A stretch of DNA of 62,747 nucleotides, the filler included, from Folioceros fuciformis (lineage: Eukaryota), in assembly GCA_049999805.1 (NCBI GenBank). It is 8 parts of 8 records of this genome, joined end to end, with 100 filler letters (N's around TTAATTAATTAA, not from the genome) between each part and the next. Parts side by side here need not be neighbours in the genome. Positions count along the whole stretch, not along the records: positions 1 to 14,158 come from JBNGIO010001539.1; 7 more parts are not named here. One strand, written 5' to 3'. The first letter of the stretch is position 1, and every line of letters begins with the position of its first letter. Of this stretch, positions 1 to 56,921 are shown piece after piece. The translations under genes were made by a program, and so were the position numbers. Below the pieces are notes generated by a model, which was given only the letters and a program-made list of their open reading frames with translations, was not told the origin of the DNA and made no database searches.

Positions 1-342
1 AGTCTCCGTCCCTTTGCCCCTGCCCTCCCATGCGCCTGCCCGCGCCCAGTGCCGCCACGCCTCGTAGGTAATTCCTGCTGAAGCTGGACTGCTGGGTCCG
101 ACGCCAGCACCAGCTGCAGCGCCAGCACCATCCGCGCGTCGCATGGGGTAGCAGGACGCGCCTTCTTGCAATTGCTCCAGCCCGGCGGTGCCATGGCCGG
201 CGCGCACGCACTCTAGCGTAGGGCAAGGCTGGCATGGTGCGCATGGACACAGGGGTGCTCGCACGCACCCACGTCCTCGCCGGCTTCACAAGAATGGTGG
301 CAGGCAGGATCGGAGCAACACACGGAAAAAGCCAGGCCGCGG

Positions 343-3300
343 ATGTTGAAGAGCGGGAACCTTGTGCATCGCCTGTTTGCGCGGCAGATCGCCCGCGGTT
401 CTGCTAACAATCAAGTACGCCAGCCCCTGCCGCCGGGCACGAGGTTTTTTCTTGCGGAATTCACGCCCGCCTTTCCCTCTTGCTGCTCATTTCATTGCTC
501 TTGTTTGGGGTGGCAGGGGCTCAGGAATCGGCAGCTCTATGAGAACATCGTGCCTAGCCACACCGTGTATGATGTGGATTGCCCTGACCATGTCTTCCGC
601 AAATTCACCAACGACGGACAGTATCTTGTCTGCTTTAGTCGGAATCTCCAGGATCTTGTTGTCTACCGCCACAACTGGCTCACGCACTGCAGTAAGGGGG
701 CTGATTGCGACGCATCGGATGATCTCCCTCCCAAGTCCAAGAAGTTTGAAAGTTACTTCACGCAGCTCTATGTTGTGTCGCTTGCCTCCGGCAACGAGGT
801 AATCTGCAAGGATTTTTTCCTCACCACGGAGAATAATTTGTATGGCATCTTTGCCACCACGACTGGGCTTGATTATTCCGCCCCTGCCTCCCGAGGTGCC
901 GTGCCGGGGGTTCCCTCGGTTGAGAGGATATGCATTCACCTCGTTAGGTAATGTTTGCTCCTGCCATCACCACCTGCAGGAGCTTCATGGAGGCTTTGAT
1001 CCGTCGCCAGGGTGCCCGTTCTTCCACCATTCCAGTATGAGCATCGTCTGGCTTGATCTTGCAGGTTGTCGGATGGAGTAGTTGTGAACGAGCGCGTCTT
1101 CCATGATGACTACATTCAGCTCTCCCACAACGTCGGGGTGGGGGGAATGGGGGTCTTTTTGTACGATGACTTGCTGGTCGTCCTCTCTATTCGCTTCCAG
1201 TGCATTTACATCCTGCAAGTGCGAGAGGCGGGCTTGCTTGTGGACGTTCGTAGCATTGGCGCTCACTGCAGAGAAGATGATGAGCTGAAGATACACATGC
1301 AGGTTCAGGTATTTAAATATTCACTGGTTCAAGATTTGTGTTGGATTGCCATCTTTCTTTTTCTTTAACCCAGTCTGATTATTTTCGGCGCAACATCCAG
1401 GAGGAAGCATGGTTCCAACAGCAACAGGCAGCAGTTCGCAAGGCCAGGGGTGTGCAGACGGAAACTGATGATGCACAAGCTCATGGCGAACAGCAGCCGA
1501 AGGAAGGTTTGCCTTTCTGCTGGAATGTAAACAGCAGCCTCAAATCAAGAAACCGACAAAACGGTAGAATACATCAGAGGGGGCAGCCTTCTGTTTCCAG
1601 GGCATGTCTCTCACCTGGAGGAAGTCATTCTGTCCAGGAAGGCGCAGCTGAGGCCACTCCTGCTACTCCTGCAGGAATGTACGGTGGCCTTCAGGGTGCT
1701 GACCTCGACCTTCAGTATGACGGTTATTTCAGTGGGTTGTTCACCAGCTTGGACAACGGTCACAGGCACCACTATAGAGCTGCGGCTGGGGCTGGGGCCG
1801 GGGCTTCGGTCGTCCGTACTCGTGACCCCAGTCCCTCTCAGGGTAGCCACTCAAGACAAGGTAATGGCTTTGAAGCCGGTCCTTCGCAGGACAGCCGCGC
1901 AGCCTCAATGCGCCTTAACAGAGCGTTCTCGACGTATGACAATGTTTATGATAACCAGCAAAGGGCTCATCACAATGCACTGGCCTCTACCAGTGGGAGT
2001 GTCAGTGGGGGGCAGCATCTTGGTATGGGGCCGCTTTCATGGCAAAACCGGTCGGTTTCCAGTGCTAGCGGAGAGAGCACTGACCTGCTGACCAGCGAGA
2101 GAACTAGTCAATCTTATCGGGCTTCTAGCACCACCCTCACCAGCACCACATGCAGTGGCAGCGGAAGTGGGAGTGGGAGCAGCAAGAGGGACTGGAGTGT
2201 GACAGGCGGCAGTGCCAGTTACGGAGAGGCTGGGGGAGGTTTAGCGAGTAGGAACACAGCGGAAAATAACCATGAATATGTTGTGAGCAGCAGAACTCAT
2301 CGACCTCGTGCATCAGGGCTGACTGACATGATGGAGGTTGATGAGGTTGGTGCATCTATTGCAAGCGCACATCTGGCTAACGGTGCAGCAGTACGGACTG
2401 CCGTGGCTACGGCGCCTCCTATGCTTTCAGGATCTAGATTTGTAGCTGATGGTGGGGGATTGGTGAGGAGCCTAGATATGCAAAATGGTTCAGTGTCTGC
2501 ACCAGTGCATGAAAGCATCACTAGTGCAGGACCCAGAGTTAGCTTAGCTCCTGAAGGTAGTCGGCGAGCGCCTATCAGTGCTCACCGGTCCAATGCAGTG
2601 CTGAGAAGCAGTGGTCACATGTTAAGGGGAGGGGTTCCCTCAAATCCTTCCTCCTCTAATGGACGACCTGCAAATGGATTGGTTCTAGGTGTGAATGGTA
2701 GTGGAGTTGGTGTGCAAGCAGAACATGGCAACAATACAAGGATTTCGGATGGGGTAGGACAAGGAAATCTCATGTTAGGTGGTTTAAAGCAAAGACTACT
2801 CTCTTTCATTTTCCAGGGTATTCGAAATGATGCCGACCCTGTTCAGGTATTTGGTACCCCCCTGTGTATGCTGCACGTACGCCTCGCTTATCTGCTTTCT
2901 GCTCTGCATGGGTGCTGATAACAAGGCCTGTTGTGATGGTAGGCTGTGGCACGTGCTATGATTGATGCTGTAAATGTTGCGTGATCACAGAGGGCGAACC
3001 GTTTGAAGAGATTTTACTACGTCTTCCAGCAGTACGTAGATTTGGTTATGTGGAAGGTGGGATCATGGAAGCTCTGATTTGGTTTCACTGTCCCTTAAGC
3101 TGTGGTTGATAGACTTGCCGCTCACAACCTATGACGCATGACGAAAAGGAGCGTTGATTTTGTTAAGTGTAACGTATGGACTGCACTTTCCAGGTACAAT
3201 TTCTGGATCGGTATCATCTGCTGATCAAGTTTGGCAGCGTTGAGGGGGTGGTAAGTTGCCCAACCTGTATCAAACACTCGGATTTAGGGGAGTGCTTGTT

Positions 3301-4468: not shown

Positions 4469-4814
4469 TATAAGTTCGACACGAAATGTGATCCGTTCGC
4501 TCAAAACGTCGGTGGTTGAAGTTCCTCGGCTTGATCAACTCAGTACAATTTTTTTTCCTTGTGCATCAATTTTGCCCAGGAAACGGAAGTACCGCTGCGG
4601 TCGACGGCTTCCATCTTTTCTGGTTATGCAGGTTCTACATTTGTGACCTGCCTGTACACTAGTTACAGAAGTATGATTAACCACGTTATAGAGTCGACAG
4701 TTAAAGCATTGTCCCAAAGCAAAAATGAGTTGCTTCGCACTGGAGATGGCCTTGCCAGATGCTTGACTAGCAAAATATGCCGATGCACAGGCCGTAGCTT
4801 GATTTGCATCAAGT

Positions 4815-6666
4815 CTATTCCTGAGCTATGTAAACCGTGGACTTAGAGAATCTACGAATAGACTCCTCGATTTCCCGCAATTGAGAGTCAAGAGTGGTCT
4901 TCACTTTCACCTGAGAGGGCGTTTCCACGTACAAGGGGAGACAGCTCAATCTGTGTTCAAGCTCCTGTTTATCTGTGTAGCATCGGAAGTGTCCAAACTG
5001 TGTAGGGAAGAAATGGCTAAATCAACAGACAGGCCTTGGGATTTTAAAGGCGGGTGTAGCTAAGGATACTGGATTCCAGAGTCTTGAGTACTTCTTTTCT
5101 CTCATCATCTTTCATTTGAACCACACCGGGCGGAAGCTTTTTAGCCTTCACTTGCAGCAACCTGCCACATCATCTGCTTTGCTGTGAGACTCGGCTTAAG
5201 ACCCTTTCCACTTTACTTCGTTTCCAGAAGGCCCAGGAACCAGGTCACCTTTGTTCGGCATCCTGAGCAAGCTCAATCTTCCGTCGCAACAAACTGCATG
5301 GCCCACCGTCCAGATCACCTCTGTGAGATGCTGGTGACCTCAATACTACCAGCCGATTTCACACATAAGGTTAGTGCTTACTATGCCGGAATTTTGCCAT
5401 AGTTCTCCTTTTGCCTGTCCTCCTTGAGTGGGGCAGGCCTTGGTGGTTGTTTTGTCACCGCATCATACAAGTTCTTGCTCACGAAGTCTATGGTCTTTTT
5501 GGGTTTGAAAGGCACACGAGGCTGAAGCACATGCTTCCTTGTAAGAAGAGGGGAAAGACTCTTGGACGGCCATGGTTGGGCTCAGTAAGCCACGGTTACA
5601 ACAACTTACTTCTGCTTTAATTTTCCGCAGTTTCTGCTTTTCGGATGCTGCGAACTCCTCCGCTACCTTCGTTAGGGTCTGTTTCAAAGTCCACCGAAAC
5701 AGCACTTCAGCACACCTCAACTCTCCCTCAATTCGTTAGAGGGTATGAGCGGCCTTAGATGGATGAATTTGACCTAGTGGCGACGACAACTGTTGTGGTG
5801 AATGGAGACACCCTTCGGTGAGAGAGGATAAAATCCTTCCAGTCACAGGATGTACTATGATACCAGGCATCTCTCTGGGACATGGTGAAAGGGAGCTGCC
5901 AGAAAACCTGAACAGCATAACAGAGCTACCAAACAACACTGCCCATGGACACCATGTCCTCAAAACGGTGTGACGCCTACTATTATGAGAAGCAACGGCA
6001 GTAAACAAGGAGCCAGCTAACTACCTGTTCCTTGGAAACCCGGTTTCGTTCACTCTGTTCCAAAATAGCTGCACGGTTATCCCTAGTATGATCCCGTGGA
6101 GTGATTCCTAGCTCTCGCATCTCCTCTCTGTCAAGAGCACTGATTCACTGTCCTGATTCCGCACAAACAAAACAGAGGACCAAGCGACAACCCAGACCTT
6201 GACCACACCATCCACAGCGCAAACACACCAAGTCAAACCTGATCCCTTTCGGCGGCCTCAGCAGATTATCAACTTGGGAGCTGTCAATGTGACTGGGCAA
6301 AGGGCCCCTCTTGTGCTTATTGATCTTAGGAGCTCCCAGGTCATCGTGATCCTAGACGGGGCAAGAAGAGGTTTAAACAAATGTGTTCTGTCTCCGGCTG
6401 AAGCCGGGGGACTGAATGAAATCCTAAGACAAACCTCGACCATTCAGATGTCTATCTTATATCACGATAACATTGAACACAAAGCAGTTTTAGTGTGCAC
6501 ATGCCGATGGATACAGGAGAGAGCTCTTGTCCCCTCCCTGGACTCCAGGAAGCCGCCCATCTGGAACAAGCTTGTAGATACTCTCATCTTCAATCCCTGA
6601 CACCAGTCGCTTCAAAGCTTGCAAATTCGACTTCTTGCAAGAGTTCTGAAGCACCGTCGGCCCCAT
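4815..6666 (-). CDS. Enkurin-domain protein (enkurin/ENKD1 family; ciliary/centriolar microtubule-associated), multi-exon
   Basis: Manual splicing of short exons gives EDESIYKLVPD, GITPRDHTRDNRAAILEQSERNR, KKTIDFVSKNLYDAV...ENYGKIPAYLLRRKIELAQDAEQR, LPPGVVQMKDDERKEVLKTLES and KQELEHRLSCLPLYVETPSQVKVKTTLDSQLREIEESIRRFSKSTVYIAQE-TAG (4815). This is the enkurin C-terminal domain pattern (YGxxPxYL, PPG..M.ddER.e.L..L, L.eIE..I..FS...VY). The start codon and one middle exon are uncertain. Confidence 0.85.
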
Positions 6667-6916
6667 AGACAGGAGATATCCTGCTGCGGTTGCGCAAACA
6701 AGGCAGACAAGTACGAGAAACCCCAGATACCGCAACGCATCAGCGACATGCAGAGACCGTCACCCGCGAAAGCCACAGGACCACACACAGCAGAATCCGA
6801 GCATGGAACAACACTACATTGGAGCCGGCGACGGTAATGGCAACATACTACACAGGCACATACGATCCCTGCTTACATTCGAGCGTCAAGACTTCCGGAC
6901 AAAACCTAATCGAATC

Positions 6917-6974
6917 TAACGGGGGGCGTTCCCGTCAGGCCGTCAATTAAAGTAGCCGTTACGCAGTTCCGTCA
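6917..6974. promoter_or_regulatory. Cluster of five CCGTYA/TRACGG boxes (MYB/MSA-like) in the bidirectional promoter between the enkurin-domain and CCDC57-like genes
   Basis: TAACGG 6917-6922, CCGTCA 6932-6937, CCGTCA 6940-6945, CCGTTA 6956-6961 and CCGTCA 6969-6974 lie near the middle of the 665-bp divergent intergenic region. The function is inferred. Confidence 0.55.
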
Positions 6975-7331
6975 GGACCTTTCCCGCTCTGGCAACCTTC
7001 TTGAGATCCAAACGTGGCCAGAGCTGTGCGTGTTGGATCGGTGTCGGACGTCGGCCCCACACAGAGGCAGTGCTGCACTCACTCTTGTTATTGCAACCAA
7101 ATCTAAGAGGAACATAATGCCGCGAGTGTGACGTGATTCAACCTTCATTTCATCAAATCTGGCCATGCGCAGGAGAAGGATATGCGCCACCACACATCAA
7201 AATTTTTACACGAGAGACAAGAATGTGCCGTGCCTCAGAGTTCCTCATTCTGTGTTATAGAGAGCGATTAGAACTTAAAAGCTCATGTGAATGACAGCTC
7301 AACTTGGCATAGCATATGGTGGGTTCCCAGC

Positions 7332-10300
7332 ATGGCACCGGACTCTGGGCTGTTTCGAACATTGCTAGAGCAGAAAGAGAAGGAATTGGTCTCACTTTGT
7401 GAACATCAAGTGCACCTCCTCCAGGACCAGGTGTCTAGTCATTGTCTCTTCCTGTTCAAGTCTCTTAGTAATCTCTCTGGAATTAGCCTGTCAAACTGGA
7501 AATTGTCGGTGGCATTGATTACGTAACTCCTCCAGCATCTTCTCTTTCCAGATTGCTGACAAGGGCAAGGAATCGGAAGACTTGGCAGGGCGACTTGCAC
7601 AGCTACAAGATGATTTTCAGGTTTCAATTTCCCGGACTCTGCATCCACACTGGCCTCCTTGTATCAGTTTACTGAATGCTACCGTGTTGTGTCCGTTATG
7701 TGAAGTACAATCTGGGCCTCCTGGACGATAGAGATGCCGAGCTTGCCCAGTACGATTCAGCCATATTATCTTTCCAGGTGACCAATAAAGATCTTCCATG
7801 AAATTGACATTCATGTCCCCAAGTGTTATACGAATTAGAATGGTGTTATGATTATTCCTGAATTGCACATGGGACCTTGATCAATCAGGCTGCAGCAAAG
7901 GAGCAAGAACGCCAACTTCAAGAAGCGAAAGCAAGACTGGTGGAATCCCAGGATGAGAGGGATCAGGTTGGCATCGTTGCATGCATCACAATCATAACAG
8001 ACGTAGCTCCTCGAGAAAAACAGCTGCTCTGATGTGTTGCTGCCCAACCATGTAGGAAAGGATAAGGACCAAGGAACTAGAGAATCACTACCAGAGGAAG
8101 CTCAAGGAAATGCAAGATCAGGTATGCTGTTGCTTTACAGCTGGTATCTGCCAACTTGAACATTGGGTATATACAGAAACTGGATTTCCACAGATGCAAA
8201 ACCTTCGCTTGACGAAAGAGGAGCTGCAAGCAAAGCAAAGGCTAGCTTTTGAGGCCACCCGTGCAGGTACTTGGCATCTCAAGTGCTTTGTTTTTCCCAG
8301 CGCATGTTACCGAAGGCCTCCTGAAGACATGCCCCTTGGAGCAAATTGGGTTCACTTTTGTTGATCTTCTCTGTACAGGTGTCAGGGAAAAGCTTTTTAA
8401 GACATTCCTAGTAACTCGTATACTCTTTTGCTTCAGACCTCATGCGACAGTTGATGGAAAAACAGGAGCAGTTGGACAATCAGAGCAAGGAGCTAGAGGC
8501 AAGATATCTTGACCAGTTGCACAAGCAGGAGCTGCAACACCAGGTTGTAGCAGATTGGGATTACGCAGTTTTTCGTATGGTAAACGACAAACACTACTTA
8601 ACTCAGCAGCTCCTTGACACAGATGCAGATGGATGAAGCTGTGAACAAGATTTTCACTTTGGAGGCACAAGTGAAACACCTAGTACACTCATCACCTGCT
8701 TTCCATATCCCATCAACAGGTGGGCCCAACTGGCGACGTACATTGAGTCGCTCACAATGGTGGACTTGTACTCGGTTCTGTGAATGCAGGAGAGAGAGTT
8801 AGAGGTAGTACGGAGCCGAGAAATCATGCAGCATAAGGAGGTGGGTTGCCTGCAAACCTTTGGTGGAGTGTACCTACTTCACAAATGATCAATCTTCCCT
8901 TGAACAGTAGTCTTTCTCAGCCGTCACGAACTATATCTCGATTCCAGGAACTCGAGCTGCAAGCCTCTCTGGGAAAGAAGGAGCAGCAGCTCCAGGTAAT
9001 TAGTTTCCTTTCTTAGTAGCTACATTGACTCTTGAATTCTTTCGTGTACTTCTGGCACAGAAGACTGCCAAGATAATCAGGCAGAAATTGATACTCCATT
9101 GAATGTTCAGGATATGTCGACGCACGTAAAGCGGTTACAACACGACCAGGATGATCTGAAATTGGAGCACGACAGGGAGATGAAGAGGATGTCTTACAAG
9201 TTGGAAAAGTTAGCCGAATCGCATGCCTCTGCACTCGCACAGAAGGTGCAAAACTGTTACTTCTTCAGGTTTGATGCATGATATACATGCTAAGGCAATA
9301 TATCTCCAGCTCACTAGGCGATAGAACCTAACAGAAATTCAATTGGCACTACTTAGTGGTAATTCAACCCTCCATATGCAACATACAGGAGGCATCGAAC
9401 CGGGCATTAGATTTGCAGTTGAAGGCGCTTGAAACTGAGCTTGCAAGGAACGAGGCAGAAAAGATTGAACAGATCACAAAATTCAAAGAGAGGGTAAGAC
9501 GAAATATGGGGCGTGCAGAACGCTGTTCTTTTGCGTGGGACCCATTATTAAATTCTTCCAAGATGCGCAGGTGAGGCACATGGAAGAGGAACTGGTCTCG
9601 CTAGAGGCTCAAGAAGAGGGGCACATTCGGGAGTTCAAACGCCGGCTAGAGCAGCGTTTACAGGCATGCTTCTCATCTACAACACGTTCCACTGTACCCT
9701 CACAAAGGACATCACATGTCGATCAGGCTGATAGTTTGCAGATGCTTTTCGAGTCACCTGGTAGATGACGTGAATGTGCATTTTTGTGTGACAGCGTTTT
9801 CGTATCCGTAATTCTTCGTGCAGAACTTTAAAACTGAGGCACTGAACTGGAAAGCCGAGCATGAGAGTCTGCTTTCCAAGTACTCTGTTGTACAAAAGGA
9901 GCTGACAGCAGCTCTCACGCGGGAGAAAATGCTGCAAGCAGAGATTTCTGAGAAGACAAAGGAACTTCAGAAGGTAGTCAAGCATACTCTGACCCTCGGT
10001 CTATTAATCTGACCATTGTTCTCAGGATGTCGAGGCTGAAATGCAAGGGGATTATTCTATGCGTTCTGCCAGGTGAATAAGTTGTTTTGATGTTCTCAAC
10101 GTAATTTAGACGCAGCGTATTCCACTGTAAAACCAACATTTCCCCAATTCACCTCAGGAGTGTCAACTGGGATGCACTACTTAGCAGCATGGTTAACTTG
10201 TTGAACTTCCTCAGGTATCAGTGCACTTCTCATATTCCATCCATCATATCTTAGTCCTCGATAGGCAAGAAGGAAAGAGCATTGAGTATTTCTTCTGAGC

Positions 10301-12114
10301 AGGAAGGTTTCATGGCCTTGCCAAAGCAACCACCTTTGGCAAAAATCAGAACAAATGTCAGCAAGAGTGTAAGCAACAGTGTGGTTTCTCTGGATACTGA
10401 CCTGCCTGCTCCATCACCTCTTCGTTCTCCATATTCTAGTCAAGGTACAAGTTGCATTTGCGTAGTAGCCGAGCTTTGACCCACCGTGAATCTAAGTCCA
10501 TTAGAAGGTCGTACGTTGAATTCAGATAGTCGGCGGTATGTGAAGCTGGCTCTTTAAATGGCACCTAAATTGTGACCACAGGAACACAGGATCATGTACC
10601 TGATTTCCAACAAGATCAAGAGTCGTTAGCCCAAGTGCAAGGCCTGCACCTTGAGAACCAGCAGCTGCAGACTACAGTGCAGGATCTGAAGGAACAGAAC
10701 GAGCGACTCAGATCTGTAGTGGGTAAGTTTTGTCCTAGCTGTTCGGCAGAGAGATTGCTGCGAAGATAGCCTAAGGTTTGTTTTCAATATGGGAACTCTT
10801 GATTAGGCATAATGCGGAAGGAGATGGAAGCATTGCAGAAAGTAGCGTTGGAGGAAAGCAGCAAAAACCAATTTACATCAACCATGTCAGAGGTGTGCGA
10901 ATTTTCCGGTCTTCCATCTCCAAGACATTGTTTATTCCAGTGTGTTGGCGTTAACTACGACTTTGTAGGTGACAATGCTCCAAGAGGAGATGCAAAAACT
11001 GACGTCCCAAGCAGTTACAATAGCGTCACAGCTAAAGGTTTTGCAAGAAATCAAAACCGACGGTAATGCAGGGGATGAAGGCATGATCTCGGAGGTTCAG
11101 AGCAAGAGGACTGCAACACAACCGCATCTGTGAGGAGTGTGCCTGTACTTTGAATGTTACCGCCGAGAAGAGGCTGTCTCCCGAATTTTGATGTCCACTG
11201 GGGTAACTGTAATGCATGTGCAGGATAGTTAACAAACCTCCCACTGGAACAGAAACAGCGACAATAATGGCGTTGGAAAGGGAAAAGGCCTCACTTCTGA
11301 GGCAGCTGGAAGTCGGCGGGGCTGACGTAATTCGCATTGCAAAGGAGCGTGATCAGTTGATGGAGCTGAGCAACTCATTACGGGCAGATTTGAACAGGTC
11401 AGTGGCATTCCGCAGCTACAATAATTACTTTGTCGAAAGCGTGGAACCCATCCTCGGTGCCCACTTTGTGGCCGGCTCCGCAATTGTGATGTAAACAGGA
11501 TGGGTTGCACTGACTGACCAGATCTAACTTCGCCTTGCCAGGTTGGCTCCTTTCGAATCTACGCAAGCTGTGTCTACTCAGGGTTTCACGAATCTTGAAA
11601 CGCATGTAAGCCATTGTAGTGGTACTGCAGACTACCCTATCGCCTGCACACCTGGCTCGGTTTATCTAGTCTTTCTGTCAAGTCATGTGAAATATTCACA
11701 CTGGCAACACCCATGTGTACAGGGTAAAGCAAATGAACAATCATACGATCGAGGAAAGAATGTTTTAGTTGCAAATGCATCCCAGAACAGTTCACAGCCA
11801 ACTGTTCACAAAAGCCGGTCAGATCCCTTCCAGAAACTCATGCAATTGCAGGGAACTTCGACTATCACCCATGAAAGACGAGCAGCGTCAGAATATGATC
11901 CCCTGCACAAGGTTAGTAAAGGCCGTGGCACAAAACTTTATGCACGTTGACTGGCATTTTGAAAACATGCCTCGTCATCTCACCAGAGATACAGTAACAT
12001 GCCCCACAGGGAACGGCTAGCCAGCTTTCTTGGTTGAAATCAGCCTCAAAACGTCGAGAGGACGCCGGCAAGGTCAAAGTGCGAAACTACAATATCAAGG
12101 ATGAAGCGCTGTAG
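7332..12114 (+). CDS. CCDC57: CCDC57-like coiled-coil centriolar protein, many short exons
   Basis: Spliced segments match recalled human CCDC57 motifs in the same order: LLEQKEKEL..LQDDFQYNLGLLDDRDAELAQYDS (human LQEDFVYNLQVLEERDLELERYD), EQNERLRSVVGIMRKEMEAL (EQNTSLRNAIAQMRKEMEAL), IAKERDQLMELSNSLRADLNR (LEKEQLIEMGNRLRAELGR) and C-terminal KVRNYNIKDEAL-TAG (KIRNYNIMD). ATG at 7332, stop at 12112-12114. Confidence 0.85.
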
Positions 12115-12631
12115 CGAATCATCCGCAGCCTGTCCTTGAGGTACATTCCTCTCAACCGTAACGGAGTGCATGATACACATTTGAAATTTGAACACATTTG
12201 ACGACTTTGGACCCTTGTTTATGTCAGGTAGAGACGACATCAACAGTTAATATATAGACGCTCGCCTGCGTGAGTCCAACATTATGCATGAGCTTAGATT
12301 TCACAAGACAGAAGGTTTCCTTGGACAACCAGGGCTAACTTGTGTCCGGGGGAACTGACATGCCCAAACCCCAGTCCTACTCGACTCCATATGTATTAGT
12401 TACATATGTATATTATTACTCCTGTTACTGCTGCTGCTGCTGCAAAGGAGCGCAAACACTCGCCAGCATTGGAACCAATGGGAGATACATGGGCCCAAGG
12501 AGAACTTGCGAGAAGAAATGTACGTGTAGACCACAAGGCACACACAGATGGCCCACAGGCGGACCAGTAGTTTGAAAGCCTTCGACTCCCAAGGCAGTTT
12601 TTGACCATAGACCACTATCTCAATTCATCAC

Positions 12632-14158: not shown

Positions 14159-14258
14159 NNNNNNNNNNNNNNNNNNNNNNNNNNNNNNNNNNNNNNNNNN
14201 NNTTAATTAATTAANNNNNNNNNNNNNNNNNNNNNNNNNNNNNNNNNNNNNNNNNNNN
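14159..14258. other. Artificial contig spacer N44-TTAATTAATTAA-N44
   Basis: Exactly 100 nt, with a core that puts stop codons in all six frames; identical at seven places in the window. Confidence 0.99.
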
Positions 14259-15309
14259 CATCACTCTCTCGTCGTCTTGCTGCACCCGCTGGGCTGCCGC
14301 TGCTGCATCACGTAGCGGTCAGCAGCTGCGAATGCCGGTGGCGGACACCTGTTTCCCGCACTTCTCTCATCACCTGCCGCTGCCGCTGCCCCTGCTGCAC
14401 AATTTGCGTGCAACTTCTGGGTGCTAATTGTCGTCGTTCTCTCATCTGTCTGCTCCCTCCGCCTGCTACCCACTTCTTCGATTCGGGGCCGCGCCCCTGT
14501 GTCTGTGCCTGCTCTGCCGCGCTGCTGCGGCCGCACCTTCTTCCTGGAATCTTTGAGCTTCCGCCCTTCCGCCACGGATTCTTCCTCCCGCTTCCTCTGT
14601 GCTTGCGTCTCGTTCCACGATTCAGGAGCTGGGCTCTTGCCCTGCTCCGCAATTCCTTGCGCCGCTTCTCTCACTCCCCTGCCCTGTTGCTTTCTTTCTC
14701 GTTAGAGTGTCCGGTCGCTCGCCGATTCGGGACTACTTCTTGATTCCTCACCCCGCGCTGCTTTGTCGCCAACGTCAGTCATGCTGGGAGCACCATCTTG
14801 GTGAGGATAGCAAGCGAGGTCCTGGAACTTGTTGGAATGCTTTTCTGCAATTCTCGTGTCGCTCCCCGTCCTGCTACCGTTTTCTCACTCCGTCACTTTC
14901 TCGACGGATGGCAGATTGCTTGTGAATGGTGTCGTTTCTGAGCAAGTGCAGCGAGGTGGTGCCAGGTTGACATTGTCATTGGGCGGACGAATGGAATGCA
15001 CTTGTCCATGTTCAACCTGTGGTAGATAGGTCCAACAACAACTTATGCTTCTCGACTGCCACCTTGTCTTCAACTCACTGATGGCGGCCAAGTCGAGTTT
15101 GCTTCTCAGGTGCAGATGGGTTCATTTGTCTGGAATCCCGTTCCGCAAGAAAGACAGCCCTCTTTCCACCGCAGTTTCTGGACCCTTCATTGGACTTGGC
15201 GATGCCGTTGTTCCTCGCCGTGGATGAGCTCGAGGGTGGAGCGCTTTCATTCACCTGCTACTTGCTCCCACAGACTTGCTCCTTTAATCGGCAACTAGTA
15301 TAGGACTGC

Positions 15310-18300
15310 ATGGGTCTTGAGGGGAGCATGATGGCTAGCGCTGCAGTCCAAAGGAATAGGCACGCCAGCCATTCCCCACGCTTTGGGTTGGGATTGGGAT
15401 TGAGACTGGAAGTGGGAGGCCCGGAACGGGGCGGCGACATGAGAGGTAGGGACTCAGGAATCTCCAGGTTGTTTGCAGTTTCGGTCGAAGAATCCGCGGA
15501 TGACATGCCCTCCAACTTCCTCTGCCCCATCTCATTGGAGCCCATGAAGGACCCTGTTACCCTCTGCACAGGTCAGACTTATGACAGACACAGCATCGAG
15601 AGGTGGCTGGCTGCAGGTAACAGGACGTGTCCCACAACCATGCAGAGGCTGACGGACGGCAACCTTATTCCGAACCACACTCTAAGGCATGTGATTGACG
15701 AGTGGCACAAGAAGCAGACACTCAAGGCTGTTAGAAGGGCCAAGAAGCAGTCTGCCCCTCTCAAGGAAACCACTCCAGCAGAAGTGAGGGCTTTGTTGGA
15801 GGAGATCGTTCTCTGCAAGGGCCTGGAGGACATTATGCTCTCCAAAGGTCAGGGCATCGTCATGAAGGACCTGAATGGCCAGGAGGTGAGGGTGCTGAGC
15901 TCCCCTGAATACTCTGACACCATATGGAAGCAAGCCATCGACTCAAGCCTTCACCAGGAGCTGGTGGATGGACTTCTGCAGATGGACATTAAAGAGGGGA
16001 TTACAGTGGCTGAATTAGGCAGCCACAAAGGTGTCTGGGAGTGTGGGGATGTCCTCAATTCGTCTCGTCGAATGGTTATTCCAAGCCTGCAGGAACTCAC
16101 GTGTGAGAGCCATGCCGCAGTAGAGGCAGAAGGTCAGGAAGTCGACTGGCCCAGATTGAAGGATGATCATCAGCATGCATTGGTAATGGATTCTATTCGA
16201 GGTCATCCAATTGCTGGGAGGTCACCGTCACCGCTCAAAACTACCCCCCAAAGATCTCAGATTTTGGAGCCTGCCAAGTCTGACTCTTCGGGAGCTGCAG
16301 AGTCGCCCAGACTTCTTGCTCTCATCAAAGATAGGCTGCCCGAGAACAGGCTCCAGAAAGTTGAGCCTGCTGATTTTCGCAAGAAAGGATCGAACAGCCC
16401 TGCGAAATGGCGGGATCTTGTGGTGGCGAAGTGGCGTGACATCACAGCTCAGGCTCTGCGAAGGGGTGCTGTCAGAGGCCAGAAAACCAGAAGCCCAGCA
16501 AACAGAGGAGCAGGGAAGCAAGTAGTGCACAATTCTGCGGGGTATTCTGGAGGAAACCAGTTTTCGTCGCAGGTCGCGAAGGATTCTGCTCTTCCTGTGA
16601 AAGTGCAAACGAGTCTTCCTCGGGCTCTCAAAAGTGACAACAGGGATTCACAGAAGGAGGAGACCGTGCCCAAGCCTTCACACCGTCGACATCTGTCGGG
16701 ATCCGGTGCTGATCTAAGTGACAAGATCTGTTCAAACAGGTATGATTTTGCCAGTGAGAGGGTCGCTGTGGATCCTTTCACTTGGGAAGACCTTTTGGAC
16801 ACCAGGAATGTGCAGGAATCGTTAGGTGGTTCGCAACGTAAGGGAGTTCATAACCCCGCACCTTCTACCAGATTACGCAGCAGCCCTTCGGGGAAGAGAC
16901 TGGATGGGCTGTCATCTGGGCCTGAGCAAGTGATGACCCCGTGCAAGTGGCCATTGCAGAAGCTGATTCCCAACGCGAGAGCGAAACAAACCTCTGGCTC
17001 TGACCAAGACGGAAAGCACTCGCAACAGGAGGCTGTGGCCATGGACTGGAGTTATTACCGCAAAGTTCCTCCATCGTCTCCAATGGACCCTGCCGATGCT
17101 GATGGCTACATGCAGGAAATTGGTAGCCTGTCCGACTTCGGCAGGGAAATCTCACTGTACAGTCCCCAGGAGATGCATGTTTCAATGCAAGACTTCGCAT
17201 CCCCCGAGCAGATATCTTTGCTTTCAGGGCCTCTGTCTGGCCCAATCTCTCCCCTTTCTGTTCTTGAGGCTTCAGCTTCTCCTGAGGTTGTGTCCCCCTT
17301 TTCAAGACACGCATCAACTGGAGGTGCATCTCCTCTTTCGGGTTTCACATCACCGTTCTATGGGCAGGCGTCACCGTTGTCAGGTCCATTTTCTGGGCCC
17401 ATCTCTGGTCCCATGTCTGGGCCATTGTCACCTTTCTCTGTGCACAGCTCGTCGCGGTCACAGTCTATGGGATACATTACACCTCCACCGACCGTGCTGG
17501 ATGAGGGCTTTCCATTTGGACAGGACGATTGTTTCCAGAACGGGGAGTTTAGCAAGTGCTCGAAAGGCAATATCAAGGCTTCGTCTATGGCAGAGTATTG
17601 TTATTGTGATGATGGTACAGCTGCCACGTTTCCTATGCTGTTCTCCCAGCATTGTGACAATGGCTCCCCAGGAGTGTACTTTCCATCATCGGGGCACTCA
17701 GGAGAGTTTTGCTCGCCGATGGCTGGACAAGTGGAAACCCAGGCTCTCTCTCTTGGACAGCCAGAAAGCGACGTCTTAGTGAACCCTCCTCCGTCTCCTA
17801 ACAAAAACTTCCCATCTCCTGTGACTGGACCAGCTGAACTCTGTCCTTCTGGGCAGGATGGTTTGCAGGCTATGAGGCTCGAAGCTTTGAAGAAGCTGCA
17901 AAAGCTTGCAGCATCCGAGCAGATTCACCGCCTTGGCATGGTGGATGAGACAATCCCTGTTCTGCTCACTGCACTGGAGCCTCACTCCCTGCAGAGCCAG
18001 AAGAAGGCTGACCGAAAGACTGCAAGAGAGTGTGCTGCCTTGGTTGTGAAAACTCTTGTCTTGTTGATGCCTTTGACAGCTAACACAGCAGCTCAACTCA
18101 CAGATCAGGTGGTCGTAGATGCTCTGATTGCACAGATGGGTGAAGATGCCACTCTGGGTACCAGGATCAGCGTTGTGACATTGCTTGGGCATATTGTTGA
18201 GACCTTGGTTGATGGTATTGGCACTGCAACAGCAGGAGTTCGTCAAACATCGAATTTGGATGTAGATGGGCTGACAGGAGGAAGTGCGGCTGCTCACAGG

Positions 18301-19008
18301 CTTGGACAGGGATGGTCGGGCCGGATTACCTCAGGCATGTTGGACAGTGATCCTCACACGCCACCTTGTGTTGCAAGCCCCCTTGACCATAGGACAGTTG
18401 CTCAAATTATTACGAGAATCGGTAACAATTGCAGCTTGTTGCAAATGCTCGTCCTCCTCCTCCAATGTGGACGACGTCACTACCAGGCAGCAATTGCCTC
18501 TGTCTCTACCATCTACCTTCTATGCACCCATTGCAGCAAGGCTCTCTTCCCTCTGGTAAGTCTTGGTGCCGTCCCTAGTTTGGTGGACCTCATACCCTTG
18601 GGTGCATCACTATCAGAGGACAGGGCCACAGATAGGACAGGGAAAATTCTCCATCTCTTGGAGCTTGTTTGCACCACAGAAGAAGGTCGACTTGCCCTGA
18701 TGCATCATTACAGGTCTTTGATGCCCAGGTTAGTTGCATGCTTGCGACCAAAGAATGAAAGGCGGACAGAGGCAGCGCTGACAGTGCTGTCAAGTGTCAT
18801 TGGATCTCCTGAGTCTGGACGCAGTGACAAGCTCTCTGTGGCTGCAGTGGAAGCCGGTGCTGCAAGCAAGTTGGTGCTGCTAATTCAAAGTGGGTGCAGT
18901 GTGGCTATCAAGGCGAAGTGCACAGAGCTGCTCAAGTTTTTGAGCAACAAGTACTCCGCAACAACCATGTTTCTCTACCACAACGATCTCACTCAGACTC
19001 TGCAGTAG
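15310..19008 (+). CDS. Plant U-box/ARM-repeat E3 ubiquitin ligase (PUB), intronless, with a very long disordered middle
   Basis: 1232-aa ORF. U-box PSNFLCPISLEPMKDPVTLCTGQTYDRHSIERWLAAGNRTCPTTMQRL...LIPNHTLRHVIDEW lies at about 15505-15705. ARM-like helical repeats start near 17870 (LVSLGAVPSLVDLI, LLELVCTTEEGR, AVEAGAASKLVLLIQSGCSVAIKAKCTELLKFL). The true start may be a later ATG. Confidence 0.93.
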   Translation: MGLEGSMMASAAVQRNRHASHSPRFGLGLGLRLEVGGPERGGDMRGRDSGISRLFAVSVEESADDMPSNFLCPISLEPMKDPVTLCTGQTYDRHSIERWLAAGNRTCPTTMQRLTDGNLIPNHTLRHVIDEWHKKQTLKAVRRAKKQSAPLKETTPAEVRALLEEIVLCKGLEDIMLSKGQGIVMKDLNGQEVRVLSSPEYSDTIWKQAIDSSLHQELVDGLLQMDIKEGITVAELGSHKGVWECGDVLNSSRRMVIPSLQELTCESHAAVEAEGQEVDWPRLKDDHQHALVMDSIRGHPIAGRSPSPLKTTPQRSQILEPAKSDSSGAAESPRLLALIKDRLPENRLQKVEPADFRKKGSNSPAKWRDLVVAKWRDITAQALRRGAVRGQKTRSPANRGAGKQVVHNSAGYSGGNQFSSQVAKDSALPVKVQTSLPRALKSDNRDSQKEETVPKPSHRRHLSGSGADLSDKICSNRYDFASERVAVDPFTWEDLLDTRNVQESLGGSQRKGVHNPAPSTRLRSSPSGKRLDGLSSGPEQVMTPCKWPLQKLIPNARAKQTSGSDQDGKHSQQEAVAMDWSYYRKVPPSSPMDPADADGYMQEIGSLSDFGREISLYSPQEMHVSMQDFASPEQISLLSGPLSGPISPLSVLEASASPEVVSPFSRHASTGGASPLSGFTSPFYGQASPLSGPFSGPISGPMSGPLSPFSVHSSSRSQSMGYITPPPTVLDEGFPFGQDDCFQNGEFSKCSKGNIKASSMAEYCYCDDGTAATFPMLFSQHCDNGSPGVYFPSSGHSGEFCSPMAGQVETQALSLGQPESDVLVNPPPSPNKNFPSPVTGPAELCPSGQDGLQAMRLEALKKLQKLAASEQIHRLGMVDETIPVLLTALEPHSLQSQKKADRKTARECAALVVKTLVLLMPLTANTAAQLTDQVVVDALIAQMGEDATLGTRISVVTLLGHIVETLVDGIGTATAGVRQTSNLDVDGLTGGSAAAHRLGQGWSGRITSGMLDSDPHTPPCVASPLDHRTVAQIITRIGNNCSLLQMLVLLLQCGRRHYQAAIASVSTIYLLCTHCSKALFPLVSLGAVPSLVDLIPLGASLSEDRATDRTGKILHLLELVCTTEEGRLALMHHYRSLMPRLVACLRPKNERRTEAALTVLSSVIGSPESGRSDKLSVAAVEAGAASKLVLLIQSGCSVAIKAKCTELLKFLSNKYSATTMFLYHNDLTQTLQ

Positions 19009-22259: not shown

Positions 22260-22359
22260 NNNNNNNNNNNNNNNNNNNNNNNNNNNNNNNNNNNNNNNNN
22301 NNNTTAATTAATTAANNNNNNNNNNNNNNNNNNNNNNNNNNNNNNNNNNNNNNNNNNNN
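22260..22359. other. Artificial contig spacer
   Basis: N44-TTAATTAATTAA-N44. Confidence 0.99.
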
Positions 22360-38491: not shown

Positions 38492-38591
38492 NNNNNNNNN
38501 NNNNNNNNNNNNNNNNNNNNNNNNNNNNNNNNNNNTTAATTAATTAANNNNNNNNNNNNNNNNNNNNNNNNNNNNNNNNNNNNNNNNNNNN
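38492..38591. other. Artificial contig spacer
   Basis: N44-TTAATTAATTAA-N44. Confidence 0.99.
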
Positions 38592-41769: not shown

Positions 41770-42525
41770 TCATCCGACTTCAATTTTAATTTGGTAAGTT
41801 CCGAAGAACTCTTCCCAAAAAGTAGGGTATGCCGCTCTTCGTGTCCCGCGCACGGTATTCTTTAGTAAAAGGCGAAAGAATAGTTCGCTATGCGTTGAAC
41901 ACGCGACTCAACGTGCCATCAGAGGCTTCCCGTATATATTGCTTTGGACCTGGTACGCATACACGGGCGGAAATATGGGGTAACAATATTTCCGAACAGT
42001 TCCTCTTGGCCGTTGGAGTGCAGTCTAGTTTGCATTTGGTGTTGCCGTTCATTGAGACGTCAGGCACCTGAGGATATGGGTAAACAATTACCTCTCGGAG
42101 CGTGTTGCCATGACCTCATAACTAAGTACAGAGCGGGCCTCGGATTCCAGTGCGATGAAAAGTTTCCGGTGGTTTCTATCTGGGGCTGGGGGGTTAGGAT
42201 TGAACGCATTTTAAAAGTTGTCAAACCATGACGTAACTAATCACAACGTGCTGTGAAAGCAAAGCTGGGAAATTCCGCCACCCCTGAAATCATGTGTTAC
42301 GGTGACAACAAGTATGGAATTGCATCGTGGACCGGCTGCACTGTCTGTCCTTAGAGGTTCTGAGAATCAAGAAATCGTTCATGAAGCGCCGAGGTACGAG
42401 AATTGCAGACAAACCAGGTGCCTCCACCTTACAAACACAAAATCAATGCTGTCTTCCAGGAGCATTGATCTTGTGTGTGGATAACCTGCTCCTACTTTGA
42501 AGCAGCTGATCAAGGAAGTTGCAGG
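41770..42525 (+). pseudogene. Degenerate coding-like segment, copy 1 of a local duplication (unknown family)
   Basis: Colinear similarity to 44165-44725 (shared CGGTATTCTTTAGTAAAAGGCGAAAGAATA, GAAATCGTTC, CAAGGAAGTTGCA). The frame IRLQ..RTLPKK.MPL..RYSLVKGERIVR.ALNT is interrupted by stops and frameshifts. The strand is uncertain. Confidence 0.5.
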
Positions 42526-44164: not shown

Positions 44165-44725
44165 CATCCGACTTCAAATATCATTTTGCGAGCTCAGTCG
44201 AACTCTGCCCAAAAAGTGGGATATGCCGCTTTCAGTATCCGACGAACGGTATTCTTTAGTAAAAGGCGAAAGAATAATTCGCAATGCGTTGAACACGCAG
44301 CAGTACTTGATTCATAGGAGCTTCCCAGTTTATATTGCACTGAAGATGGTAAGCACACACCAGCAGCAATATGGGTTAGTAATATTTCCAACATCTGGTC
44401 GTGGATGTCAGAGTGCAGGCCAGTTTGCATCCGTTATTGGATTTCATAAAATATGACCACAAAATGCTGGGAAGCAGGGTTGGGGAATGCCGACACCATT
44501 GGAATGATTGATACCGGTGAAAACAAAGACGGAAGCCTCTAGGAGGCTCTATATATCACGAAATCGTTCCTGAACTGCCAGAGCATGAGGATCACATACC
44601 CGCAGTATTGCCCGTCAGAATCAACGTCCGCATCCTCTCCCATGGCTCTGCAGGATCTCCCAGCAGGTTGGACAAGAGCGGGATTTTGTCTTGAGCTAGA
44701 ACTGCGCTTGGTCAAGGAAGTTGCA
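44165..44725 (+). pseudogene. Degenerate coding-like segment, copy 2 of a local duplication
   Basis: DIRLQISFCELSRTLPKKWDMPLSVSDERYSLVKGERIIRNALNT, then after a frameshift YCTEDGKHTPAAIWVSNIS; homologous to 41770-42525. Confidence 0.5.
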
Positions 44726-46682: not shown

Positions 46683-46782
46683 NNNNNNNNNNNNNNNNNN
46701 NNNNNNNNNNNNNNNNNNNNNNNNNNTTAATTAATTAANNNNNNNNNNNNNNNNNNNNNNNNNNNNNNNNNNNNNNNNNNNN
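46683..46782. other. Artificial contig spacer
   Basis: N44-TTAATTAATTAA-N44. Confidence 0.99.
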
Positions 46783-48225: not shown

Positions 48226-48325
48226 NNNNNNNNNNNNNNNNNNNNNNNNNNNNNNNNNNNNNNNNNNNNTTAATTAATTAANNNNNNNNNNNNNNNNNNN
48301 NNNNNNNNNNNNNNNNNNNNNNNNN
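48226..48325. other. Artificial contig spacer
   Basis: N44-TTAATTAATTAA-N44. Confidence 0.99.
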
Positions 48326-52146: not shown

Positions 52147-52246
52147 NNNNNNNNNNNNNNNNNNNNNNNNNNNNNNNNNNNNNNNNNNNNTTAATTAATT
52201 AANNNNNNNNNNNNNNNNNNNNNNNNNNNNNNNNNNNNNNNNNNNN
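52147..52246. other. Artificial contig spacer
   Basis: N44-TTAATTAATTAA-N44. Confidence 0.99.
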
Positions 52247-56821: not shown

Positions 56822-56921
56822 NNNNNNNNNNNNNNNNNNNNNNNNNNNNNNNNNNNNNNNNNNNNTTAATTAATTAANNNNNNNNNNNNNNNNNNNNNNN
56901 NNNNNNNNNNNNNNNNNNNNN
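56822..56921. other. Artificial contig spacer
   Basis: N44-TTAATTAATTAA-N44. Confidence 0.99.

Follow-up and report, generated by a model that had tools for sequence, protein, structure and literature searches.

In a window of 62,747 nucleotides (nt) from the hornwort Folioceros fuciformis (GenBank assembly GCA_049999805.1), by which we mean the whole stretch of DNA analysed, eight parts joined end to end with filler, we have identified a head-to-head pair of genes within positions 4815-12114. One is an enkurin-domain gene on the minus strand and the other a long coiled-coil gene on the plus strand, in the following called the plus gene. Both genes are real and the pair is far beyond chance, because a single enkurin exon matches its Pfam profile at E 4.1e-8 and exons of the plus gene recur in unchanged order in other organisms. 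As an annotation the pair is ordinary. Taking everything together we consider it probable that this is a divergent pair of cilium-type genes with a shared promoter region, which would be activated jointly at the sperm stage and whose adjacency would be fortuitous.

An enkurin-domain gene and a coiled-coil gene in head-to-head orientation

The gene models were assembled by coordinates from open frames and GT/GC-AG sites and then compared with run contigs over 4700-12200. The start codons are found at 6666 (minus strand) and 7332 (plus strand) and the stop codons at 4815-4817 and 12112-12114, respectively, and the whole of 4815-12114 is free of N, the earliest N run beginning at 14159. This agrees with the first-pass annotation, which had described a divergent arrangement with about 665 base pairs (bp) between the starts and short-exon genes almost hidden as open reading frames (ORFs): the longest stop-to-stop frame across the pair region does not exceed 140 codons on either strand, and the introns of both genes are 72-346 nt long. 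Its further claim of a clean reconstruction held in part. It is correct for the enkurin gene (882 nt in frame, all seven introns) and for exons 1-14 and the last seven exons of the plus gene, and it failed for 9974-10444, where an enumeration between 9973 and 10444 gave 7843 stop-free splice paths and the contigs of runs X2 and X3 are partly unspliced.

The contigs come from run X1 of the same species (19 contigs, all at least 99% identical to the window) and from runs X2 (16 contigs) and X3 (12 contigs) of a relative, mostly 90-99% alike; no contigs of run X6 matched. They are labelled RNA only by guess and unspliced contigs are present too, and we take them as transcript-derived because introns are removed exactly at GT/GC-AG sites, in two species. 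Small joint offsets in the contig alignments are accounted for by shared or intervening letters at the junctions. The contigs carry no strand and do not fix the true 5' ends, and their depth is not comparable between the genes. Spliced contigs of both genes were found in three of the four runs, from two studies with unspecified tissue, and with the X2 and X3 contigs the same two genes are seen to be expressed and spliced in the related species.

For the enkurin gene, with exons of 162, 113, 103, 69, 140, 45, 92 and 158 nt, all seven introns are spliced out in contigs of X1, X2 and X3 (joints 4970/5070, 5159/5247, 5289/5382, 5521/5610, 5677/6024, 6127/6239 and 6350/6504), one joint coming from the same-species run X1 and the remainder from the relative in X2 and X3, which is about 90-95% identical. 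The splice dinucleotides are AG/GT throughout, except for intron 1 (6352-6504, minus strand), a GC-AG intron with its joint present in both X2 and X3 contigs. An open frame of 282 nt at 5739-6020 is not an exon, as it lies inside intron 3 and is skipped by an X3 contig. The last exon alone, with 51 amino acids (aa), scores 34 bits against Pfam Enkurin PF13864 (cutoff 23.6; profile positions 49-91 of 92), and this result, above the gathering score, confirms the enkurin-domain gene of the first-pass annotation. Its best match in the PDB is 9e2g_2G, 'Enkurin domain-containing protein' (E 0.098). The 30-aa exon 5161-5070, a short single-exon query, found no Pfam match at E <= 10. Upstream of this exon the spliced protein reads ...NYGKIPAYLLRRKIELAQ..., a stretch typical of the Enkurin family.

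One X1 contig of 3997 nt (depth 61) runs unbroken over 4700-5055 and continues leftwards, spanning the last enkurin exon and part of the last intron. Possibly the left neighbour's transcript ends here, in a tail-to-tail overlap with the enkurin gene.

Enkurin/FAP106 is a conserved inner-junction protein inside the B-tubule that connects protofilaments B9/B10 with A12/A13 and contributes to the assembly and stability of doublet microtubules (PMC12041511). The hornwort protein resembles it in carrying a C-terminal Enkurin domain above the Pfam threshold, located at the very end of a small protein of 293 aa, and in originating from an organism that must build flagella. It differs in that only the second half of the domain scored, the first half being split over two short exons, and in that its N-terminal exons matched no solved ENKUR/FAP106 chain. 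A C-terminal Enkurin domain is also found in ENKD1, which is centrosome/microtubule associated in mammals, and the hornwort protein might be of this type instead of the axonemal inner-junction type. We regard this as rather unlikely. It would fit that the likeness to known enkurins is limited to the C-terminal domain and that the sole PDB match is labelled merely as an Enkurin domain-containing protein. Exons 1, 5 and 7 gave no PDB chain, including ENKUR/FAP106, at E <= 10, which speaks against our assignment to the inner junction, although single short exons have little search power. Furthermore, both the length (293 aa) and the extreme C-terminal position of the domain fit ENKUR-type proteins. 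Among doublet proteins, those of the inner junction are some of the most widely conserved (PMC12041511).

The plus gene consists of at least 22 exons of 48-189 nt. Exons 1-14 (7332-9973) amount to 1194 nt in frame, coding for 398 aa, and the last seven exons (10582-12114) code for another 305 aa. At least eight of its introns are removed in contigs (8995/9111, 10444/10582, 10722/10807, 10892/10969, ~11129/11224, 11397/11542, 11605/11723 and 11911/12010). The remaining junctions were predicted from GT/GC-AG sites and the reading frame, including what may be a GC donor (9664) and, ahead of 7706, an AAG acceptor. The protein is rich in Glu, Gln and Leu and of coiled-coil type by composition, with 67% E/Q/K/R/L/A and 2% P+G in exons 1-14, and coiled-coil families of Pfam match only below threshold. 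A point against the model of the N-terminal part is one X2 contig (694 nt; 7426-7886) that splices exon 1 straight to exon 4 and retains intron 4. This joint may stem from an isoform, from a transcript not yet fully processed or from an error of assembly. The loss of exons 2-3 (141 nt) is frame-preserving but removes the best conserved N-terminal block, and because these two exons are conserved elsewhere we regard them as real despite the exon-skipping contig. The coordinates of both genes are given in Table 1.

Table 1: Features of the gene pair, with positions counted along the whole window.
Feature	Position	Strand	Details and evidence
Enkurin-domain gene, coding sequence of 8 exons	4815..6666	-	882 nt including stop, 293 aa; in-frame assembly, 7/7 introns seen as contig joints
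Enkurin exons	6666-6505, 6351-6239, 6127-6025, 5678-5610, 5521-5382, 5293-5249, 5161-5070, 4972-4815	-	stop within last exon
Enkurin intron 3, longest	5679..6024	-	346 nt; joint 5677->6024 in X3 contig
Last enkurin exon, C-terminal half of Enkurin domain	4815..4972	-	Pfam PF13864, PDB 9e2g_2G
Stretch between the ATGs	6667..7331	.	665 bp; both 5' untranslated regions and presumed shared promoter; contig reach
Coiled-coil gene, at least 22 exons	7332..12114	+	~735-775 aa; in-frame assemblies, contig joints and predicted junctions
Plus-gene exons 1-7	7332-7430, 7552-7620, 7706-7777, 7889-7966, 8056-8121, 8194-8266, 8437-8543	+	model
Plus-gene exons 8-14	8623-8670, 8790-8840, 8948-8995, 9111-9245, 9389-9493, 9571-9663, 9824-9973	+	model
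Plus-gene part with several possible structures	9974..10444	+	low-complexity linker, possible small exon 10026-10072, exon ending 10444
Plus-gene last 7 exons (17-23)	10582-10722, 10807-10892, 10969-11129, 11224-11397, 11542-11605, 11723-11911, 12010-12114	+	model
Exons 2-3, conserved N-terminal block (...LQDDFQ/YNLGLLDDRDAELAQYD...)	7552..7777	+	in-order L005 exons
Exons 17-18, conserved central block (...LENQQLQTTVQDLKEQNERLRSVVG/IMRKEMEAL...)	10582..10892	+	P0008, L005
Exon 20, conserved block (...ERDQLMELSNSLRADLN)	11224..11397	+	57% identical to P0008, E 8.8e-13
Last exon, conserved C-terminal tail (...KVKVRNYNIKDEAL, stop)	12010..12114	+	P0008, L002

Relatives of the coiled-coil gene and its possible kinship with CCDC57

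To find relatives of the plus gene, exon 20 (57 aa) was used in an exhaustive HMMER search over 1.84 billion representatives with a cutoff of E <= 0.001. From the seven matches four are true relatives at 52-58% identity, and their alignment shows 19 invariant columns. These are P0008, a protein of 367 aa from the liverwort Calypogeia fissa deposited as 'unnamed protein product', and three short ORF fragments without organism. The other three matches are long (1038-3223 aa) and were not accepted as relatives; the one inspected, P0005, consists of tandem repeats and has a very different composition. None of the four relatives found with this single 57-aa exon, a weak probe, is attributable to a seed plant.

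P0008 is the only annotated relative in the database and aligns solely with the C-terminal part of the plus gene, exons 17-23, matching exons 17, 18, 19, 20 and 23 in order (E 2.2e-7, 3.5e-4, 0.031, 8.8e-13 and 9.2e-8). With the exon-20 alignment as query, metagenome contigs yielded six loci (L001-L006), which fall into two groups. Of the 22 window exons used as queries, ten have in-order matches in L005 at E <= 0.1 (1, 2, 3, 5, 6, 8, 12, 17, 20 and 23). The N-terminal block is best conserved in exon 3, which is 71% identical to L005 over 24/24 residues (E 4.5e-8), followed by exon 2 with 48% (E 5.4e-4). In the central block exon 17 is 42% identical to residues 15-58 of P0008 and 62% identical to L005, and exon 18 is 50% identical to residues 61-76 of P0008. 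The last exon shares 46% identity with the C-terminus of P0008 (residues 326-364) and 50% with L002 (E 2.4e-6). Because the exons match in the same order in P0008 and in L005, the plus gene belongs to a family conserved among bryophyte-type plants, with four blocks that keep their order, namely the N-terminal block, the central block, exon 20 and the C-terminal tail.

The loci L002, L003 and L004 form a group that is A+T-richer by eye. It carries exons 17-20 and 23 with a variant tail (...KVRNWNIKDD...), and no N-terminal exons were found within 8.9 kb upstream.

The first-pass annotation had called the plus gene CCDC57-like. Animal CCDC57 is located at the distal end of the basal body and links the polarity of the basal foot to the orientation of the axoneme (PMC11599927); cilia and left-right patterning depend on it (PMC12969765). 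With its ~735-775 aa the plant protein is likewise long and of coiled-coil type, compared to 915 aa for human CCDC57 isoform 1 (PMC12839037).

We regard the plus gene as a putative plant counterpart of animal CCDC57, and its chances of being one as roughly even to somewhat better. Human CCDC57 presumably contains blocks like those at the N-terminus, the centre and the C-terminus of the plant protein, arranged in the same sequence, and we treat the resemblance as a lead. The fuller proposal, a land-plant orthologue of CCDC57 that shares a single bidirectional promoter of <=267 bp with enkurin, is more tentative and in our view falls somewhat short of an even chance.

Several results weigh against a kinship with CCDC57. 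Pfam searches with the plus-gene exons and with P0008 returned only sub-threshold coiled-coil or chance matches and no CCDC57 family, and PDB searches with the exon-3 frame (7676-7798) and with P0008 returned nothing relevant. In the Atlas the whole P0008 found only generic coiled-coil clusters at 0.93 with 132-151 shared features, and its tail reached scores of at most 0.82. Word-index searches against longer proteins gave 27 candidates for exon 14, none at E <= 0.01, and 3965 candidates for P0008, none at E <= 0.001; in a word-index search with a profile of the central block (126 candidates) the sole match was P0008 itself. In addition, Pan et al. 2024 describe Ccdc57 only for animals whose epithelia bear motile cilia and report none from nematodes, flies, Trypanosoma and Tetrahymena (PMC11599927), so that a plant member would fall outside the published range. 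Our literature searches found no paper joining CCDC57 with Physcomitr* or Marchantia, no paper pairing three of the window motifs with CCDC57 and, judged by titles and the beginnings of abstracts, none on a Chlamydomonas orthologue of CCDC57. One of the papers with both names mentions Chlamydomonas a single time, for Lrrcc1.

These results would be expected if the plus gene encoded a coiled-coil protein of the plant lineage without kinship to CCDC57, such as a part of the spline/multilayered structure or a non-ciliary protein. As no search in Pfam, PDB, the Atlas or the word index has linked the gene to any named family and its sole named relative is the unnamed product from Calypogeia fissa, the likeness to CCDC57 would then come down to coiled-coil composition and a few short motifs. 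Such an origin is nevertheless doubtful to us, since the conservation is concentrated in discrete N-terminal, central and very C-terminal blocks, unlike in a generic coiled coil. The similarly ordered blocks that human CCDC57 presumably carries point in the same direction.

The stretch between the start codons and the linkage of the pair

Contigs spliced in the enkurin gene extend to 6843 in X1 and 6838 in X2, and a contig spliced in the plus gene reaches back to 7111 in X2. The gap between the transcribed contigs of the two genes is thus <=267 bp. The interval 6844-7110 is uncovered in X1, and nothing is inferred from this gap. Between the two contig reaches no TATAAA was detected by eye, and only short, unremarkable repeats occur between the ATGs. 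Both the start codons (6666/7332) and the contig reach (6843/7111) agree with the spacing of bidirectional-promoter pairs, divergent genes with starts less than 1 kb apart. Because the transcription units come within <=267 bp of each other a shared promoter region is most likely, and we predict a shared bidirectional promoter as likely from the geometry. For a co-regulated sperm module, too, the support comes from geometry.

The human PACRG/PRKN locus is a known case in which the gene for an inner-junction protein and its divergent neighbour are served by one short promoter. The hornwort pair is similar to bidirectional promoters of this type in its divergent orientation, with ATGs 665 bp and contigs <=267 bp apart. 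It differs in being predicted from geometry, and in the hornwort both partners would be cilium genes. A literature search for enkurin and spermatozoid gave no paper on plants.

In the model that we favour, the 293-aa protein with its C-terminal Enkurin domain would stabilise the inner junction of axonemal doublets within the B-tubule and the plus gene would supply a coiled-coil protein, the putative basal-body counterpart of CCDC57. Both genes would be driven from one short TATA-less bidirectional promoter region, and most likely they would be activated together in spermatogenous cells that build flagella and basal bodies. One observation counts against the sperm-stage part of this model. RRCSGTT, the consensus of the DUO1-type MYB site, occurs once between the genes (6954-6960) and is under-represented in the window, with 24 sites found compared to 37 expected from shuffles. 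Given this deficit, nothing is drawn from the site at 6954-6960.

The pair might also be an ancient, selectively kept sperm-motility module, in which enkurin and an orthologue of CCDC57 have shared a bidirectional promoter across seed-free plants. The head-to-head geometry with its narrow gap between the contigs, the cilium or basal-body type of both families (enkurin by Pfam, the plus gene as a putative CCDC57) and the expression and splicing of both genes in the related species would suit such a module. We looked for a similar arrangement at the loci L001, L005 and L006, where the first exon of the orthologue is found 1.3-3.3 kb from the locus edge. The outcome leans against a tight linkage: with the spliced enkurin protein tblastn gave no match at E <= 0.01 in any of the six metagenome loci and, when relaxed to E <= 50, only matches at E >= 1.7, and in L005:1-3306, a flank of only 3.3 kb, none of the 24 minus-strand frames matches PF13864. 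That no enkurin exon is found near the orthologue in L001, L005 and L006 is weak evidence, since the L005 gene is ~1.55x the size of the window gene and the last enkurin exon, scaled accordingly, would be located ~3.7-3.9 kb upstream, just past the flank. Two minus-strand tblastn matches in L005 (E 21 and E 40), although in an order fitting a head-to-head gene, were judged to be noise. For tight conservation of the linkage the evidence would therefore lean against, as seen in one other lineage with its 3.3-kb flank. In addition, one or two head-to-head pairs of cilium genes are expected by chance, as a rough estimate from several hundred cilium genes among tens of thousands. An ancient module appears improbable, and we regard it as more likely that the two genes became neighbours by accident in this lineage, with its compact genome.

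The L005 region 1-3300, upstream of the orthologous coiled-coil gene, contains repeated frame fragments as well as frames that look like reverse transcriptase by eye only. None of them has a Pfam match, so that a transposon was not called.

Equally improbable is a broad expression of both genes with roles outside flagella: the spliced contigs from runs of unspecified tissue in two studies would allow for it, but enkurin-domain genes are a feature of cilium-building organisms, and among the cells of land plants cilia are made by sperm alone.

In seed-free plants basal bodies and flagella arise de novo in just one cell type, which makes their cilium genes a clean system for studying how such a programme is switched on. 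If two cilium genes physically share a promoter, as proposed here for the divergent pair, this would be a minimal element for finding sperm-specific control sequences. The sperm of bryophytes carries two staggered, asymmetrically anchored flagella, and a plant CCDC57, if true, would provide a second and very distant system for relating basal-body asymmetry to beat direction. It would also mean that this basal-body protein is far older and has survived in plants with flagellate sperm, correcting the published tie of CCDC57 to animal ciliated epithelia (PMC11599927). The present result is mainly a corrected annotation, in which the enkurin gene is defined exactly with its 8 exons and a long coiled-coil gene, of the kind that automatic prediction tends to fragment, is modelled almost completely. 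It would be of more than modest importance only if both the orthology to CCDC57 and a conserved linkage hold true.

Surroundings of the pair

On the left the pair is followed by a multi-exon gene, whose longest frame of 244 aa has no Pfam match at E <= 0.001. A likeness to DET1 was noted by eye only and the gene was not named, given this frame without a Pfam match. On the right a Ser/Pro-rich single-exon frame without Pfam match is found. As the genes flanking the pair on either side show no cilium-related family, we are dealing with a pair and not with a larger cilium cluster.

Beyond the N run at 14159, an uninterrupted frame of 1234 codons at 15304-19005 (plus strand) encodes a U-box and a plant-type ARM_PUB domain (E 3.7e-20 and 1.8e-25, respectively), and this gene is intron-less amid intron-rich genes. 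Its domain combination is of the plant U-box type and speaks for a plant origin of the sequence. Seven pairs of 44-N runs with 12 bases between the members are located at 14159-14258, 22260-22359, 38492-38591, 46683-46782, 48226-48325, 52147-52246 and 56822-56921; they resemble masked sequence, and none of them touches the gene pair. Finally, the window contains two full-length genes for U5 spliceosomal RNA on the minus strand (41794-41908 and 44188-44302), which are 2.4 kb apart and score 88.1 and 78.3 bits at a gathering threshold of 40.

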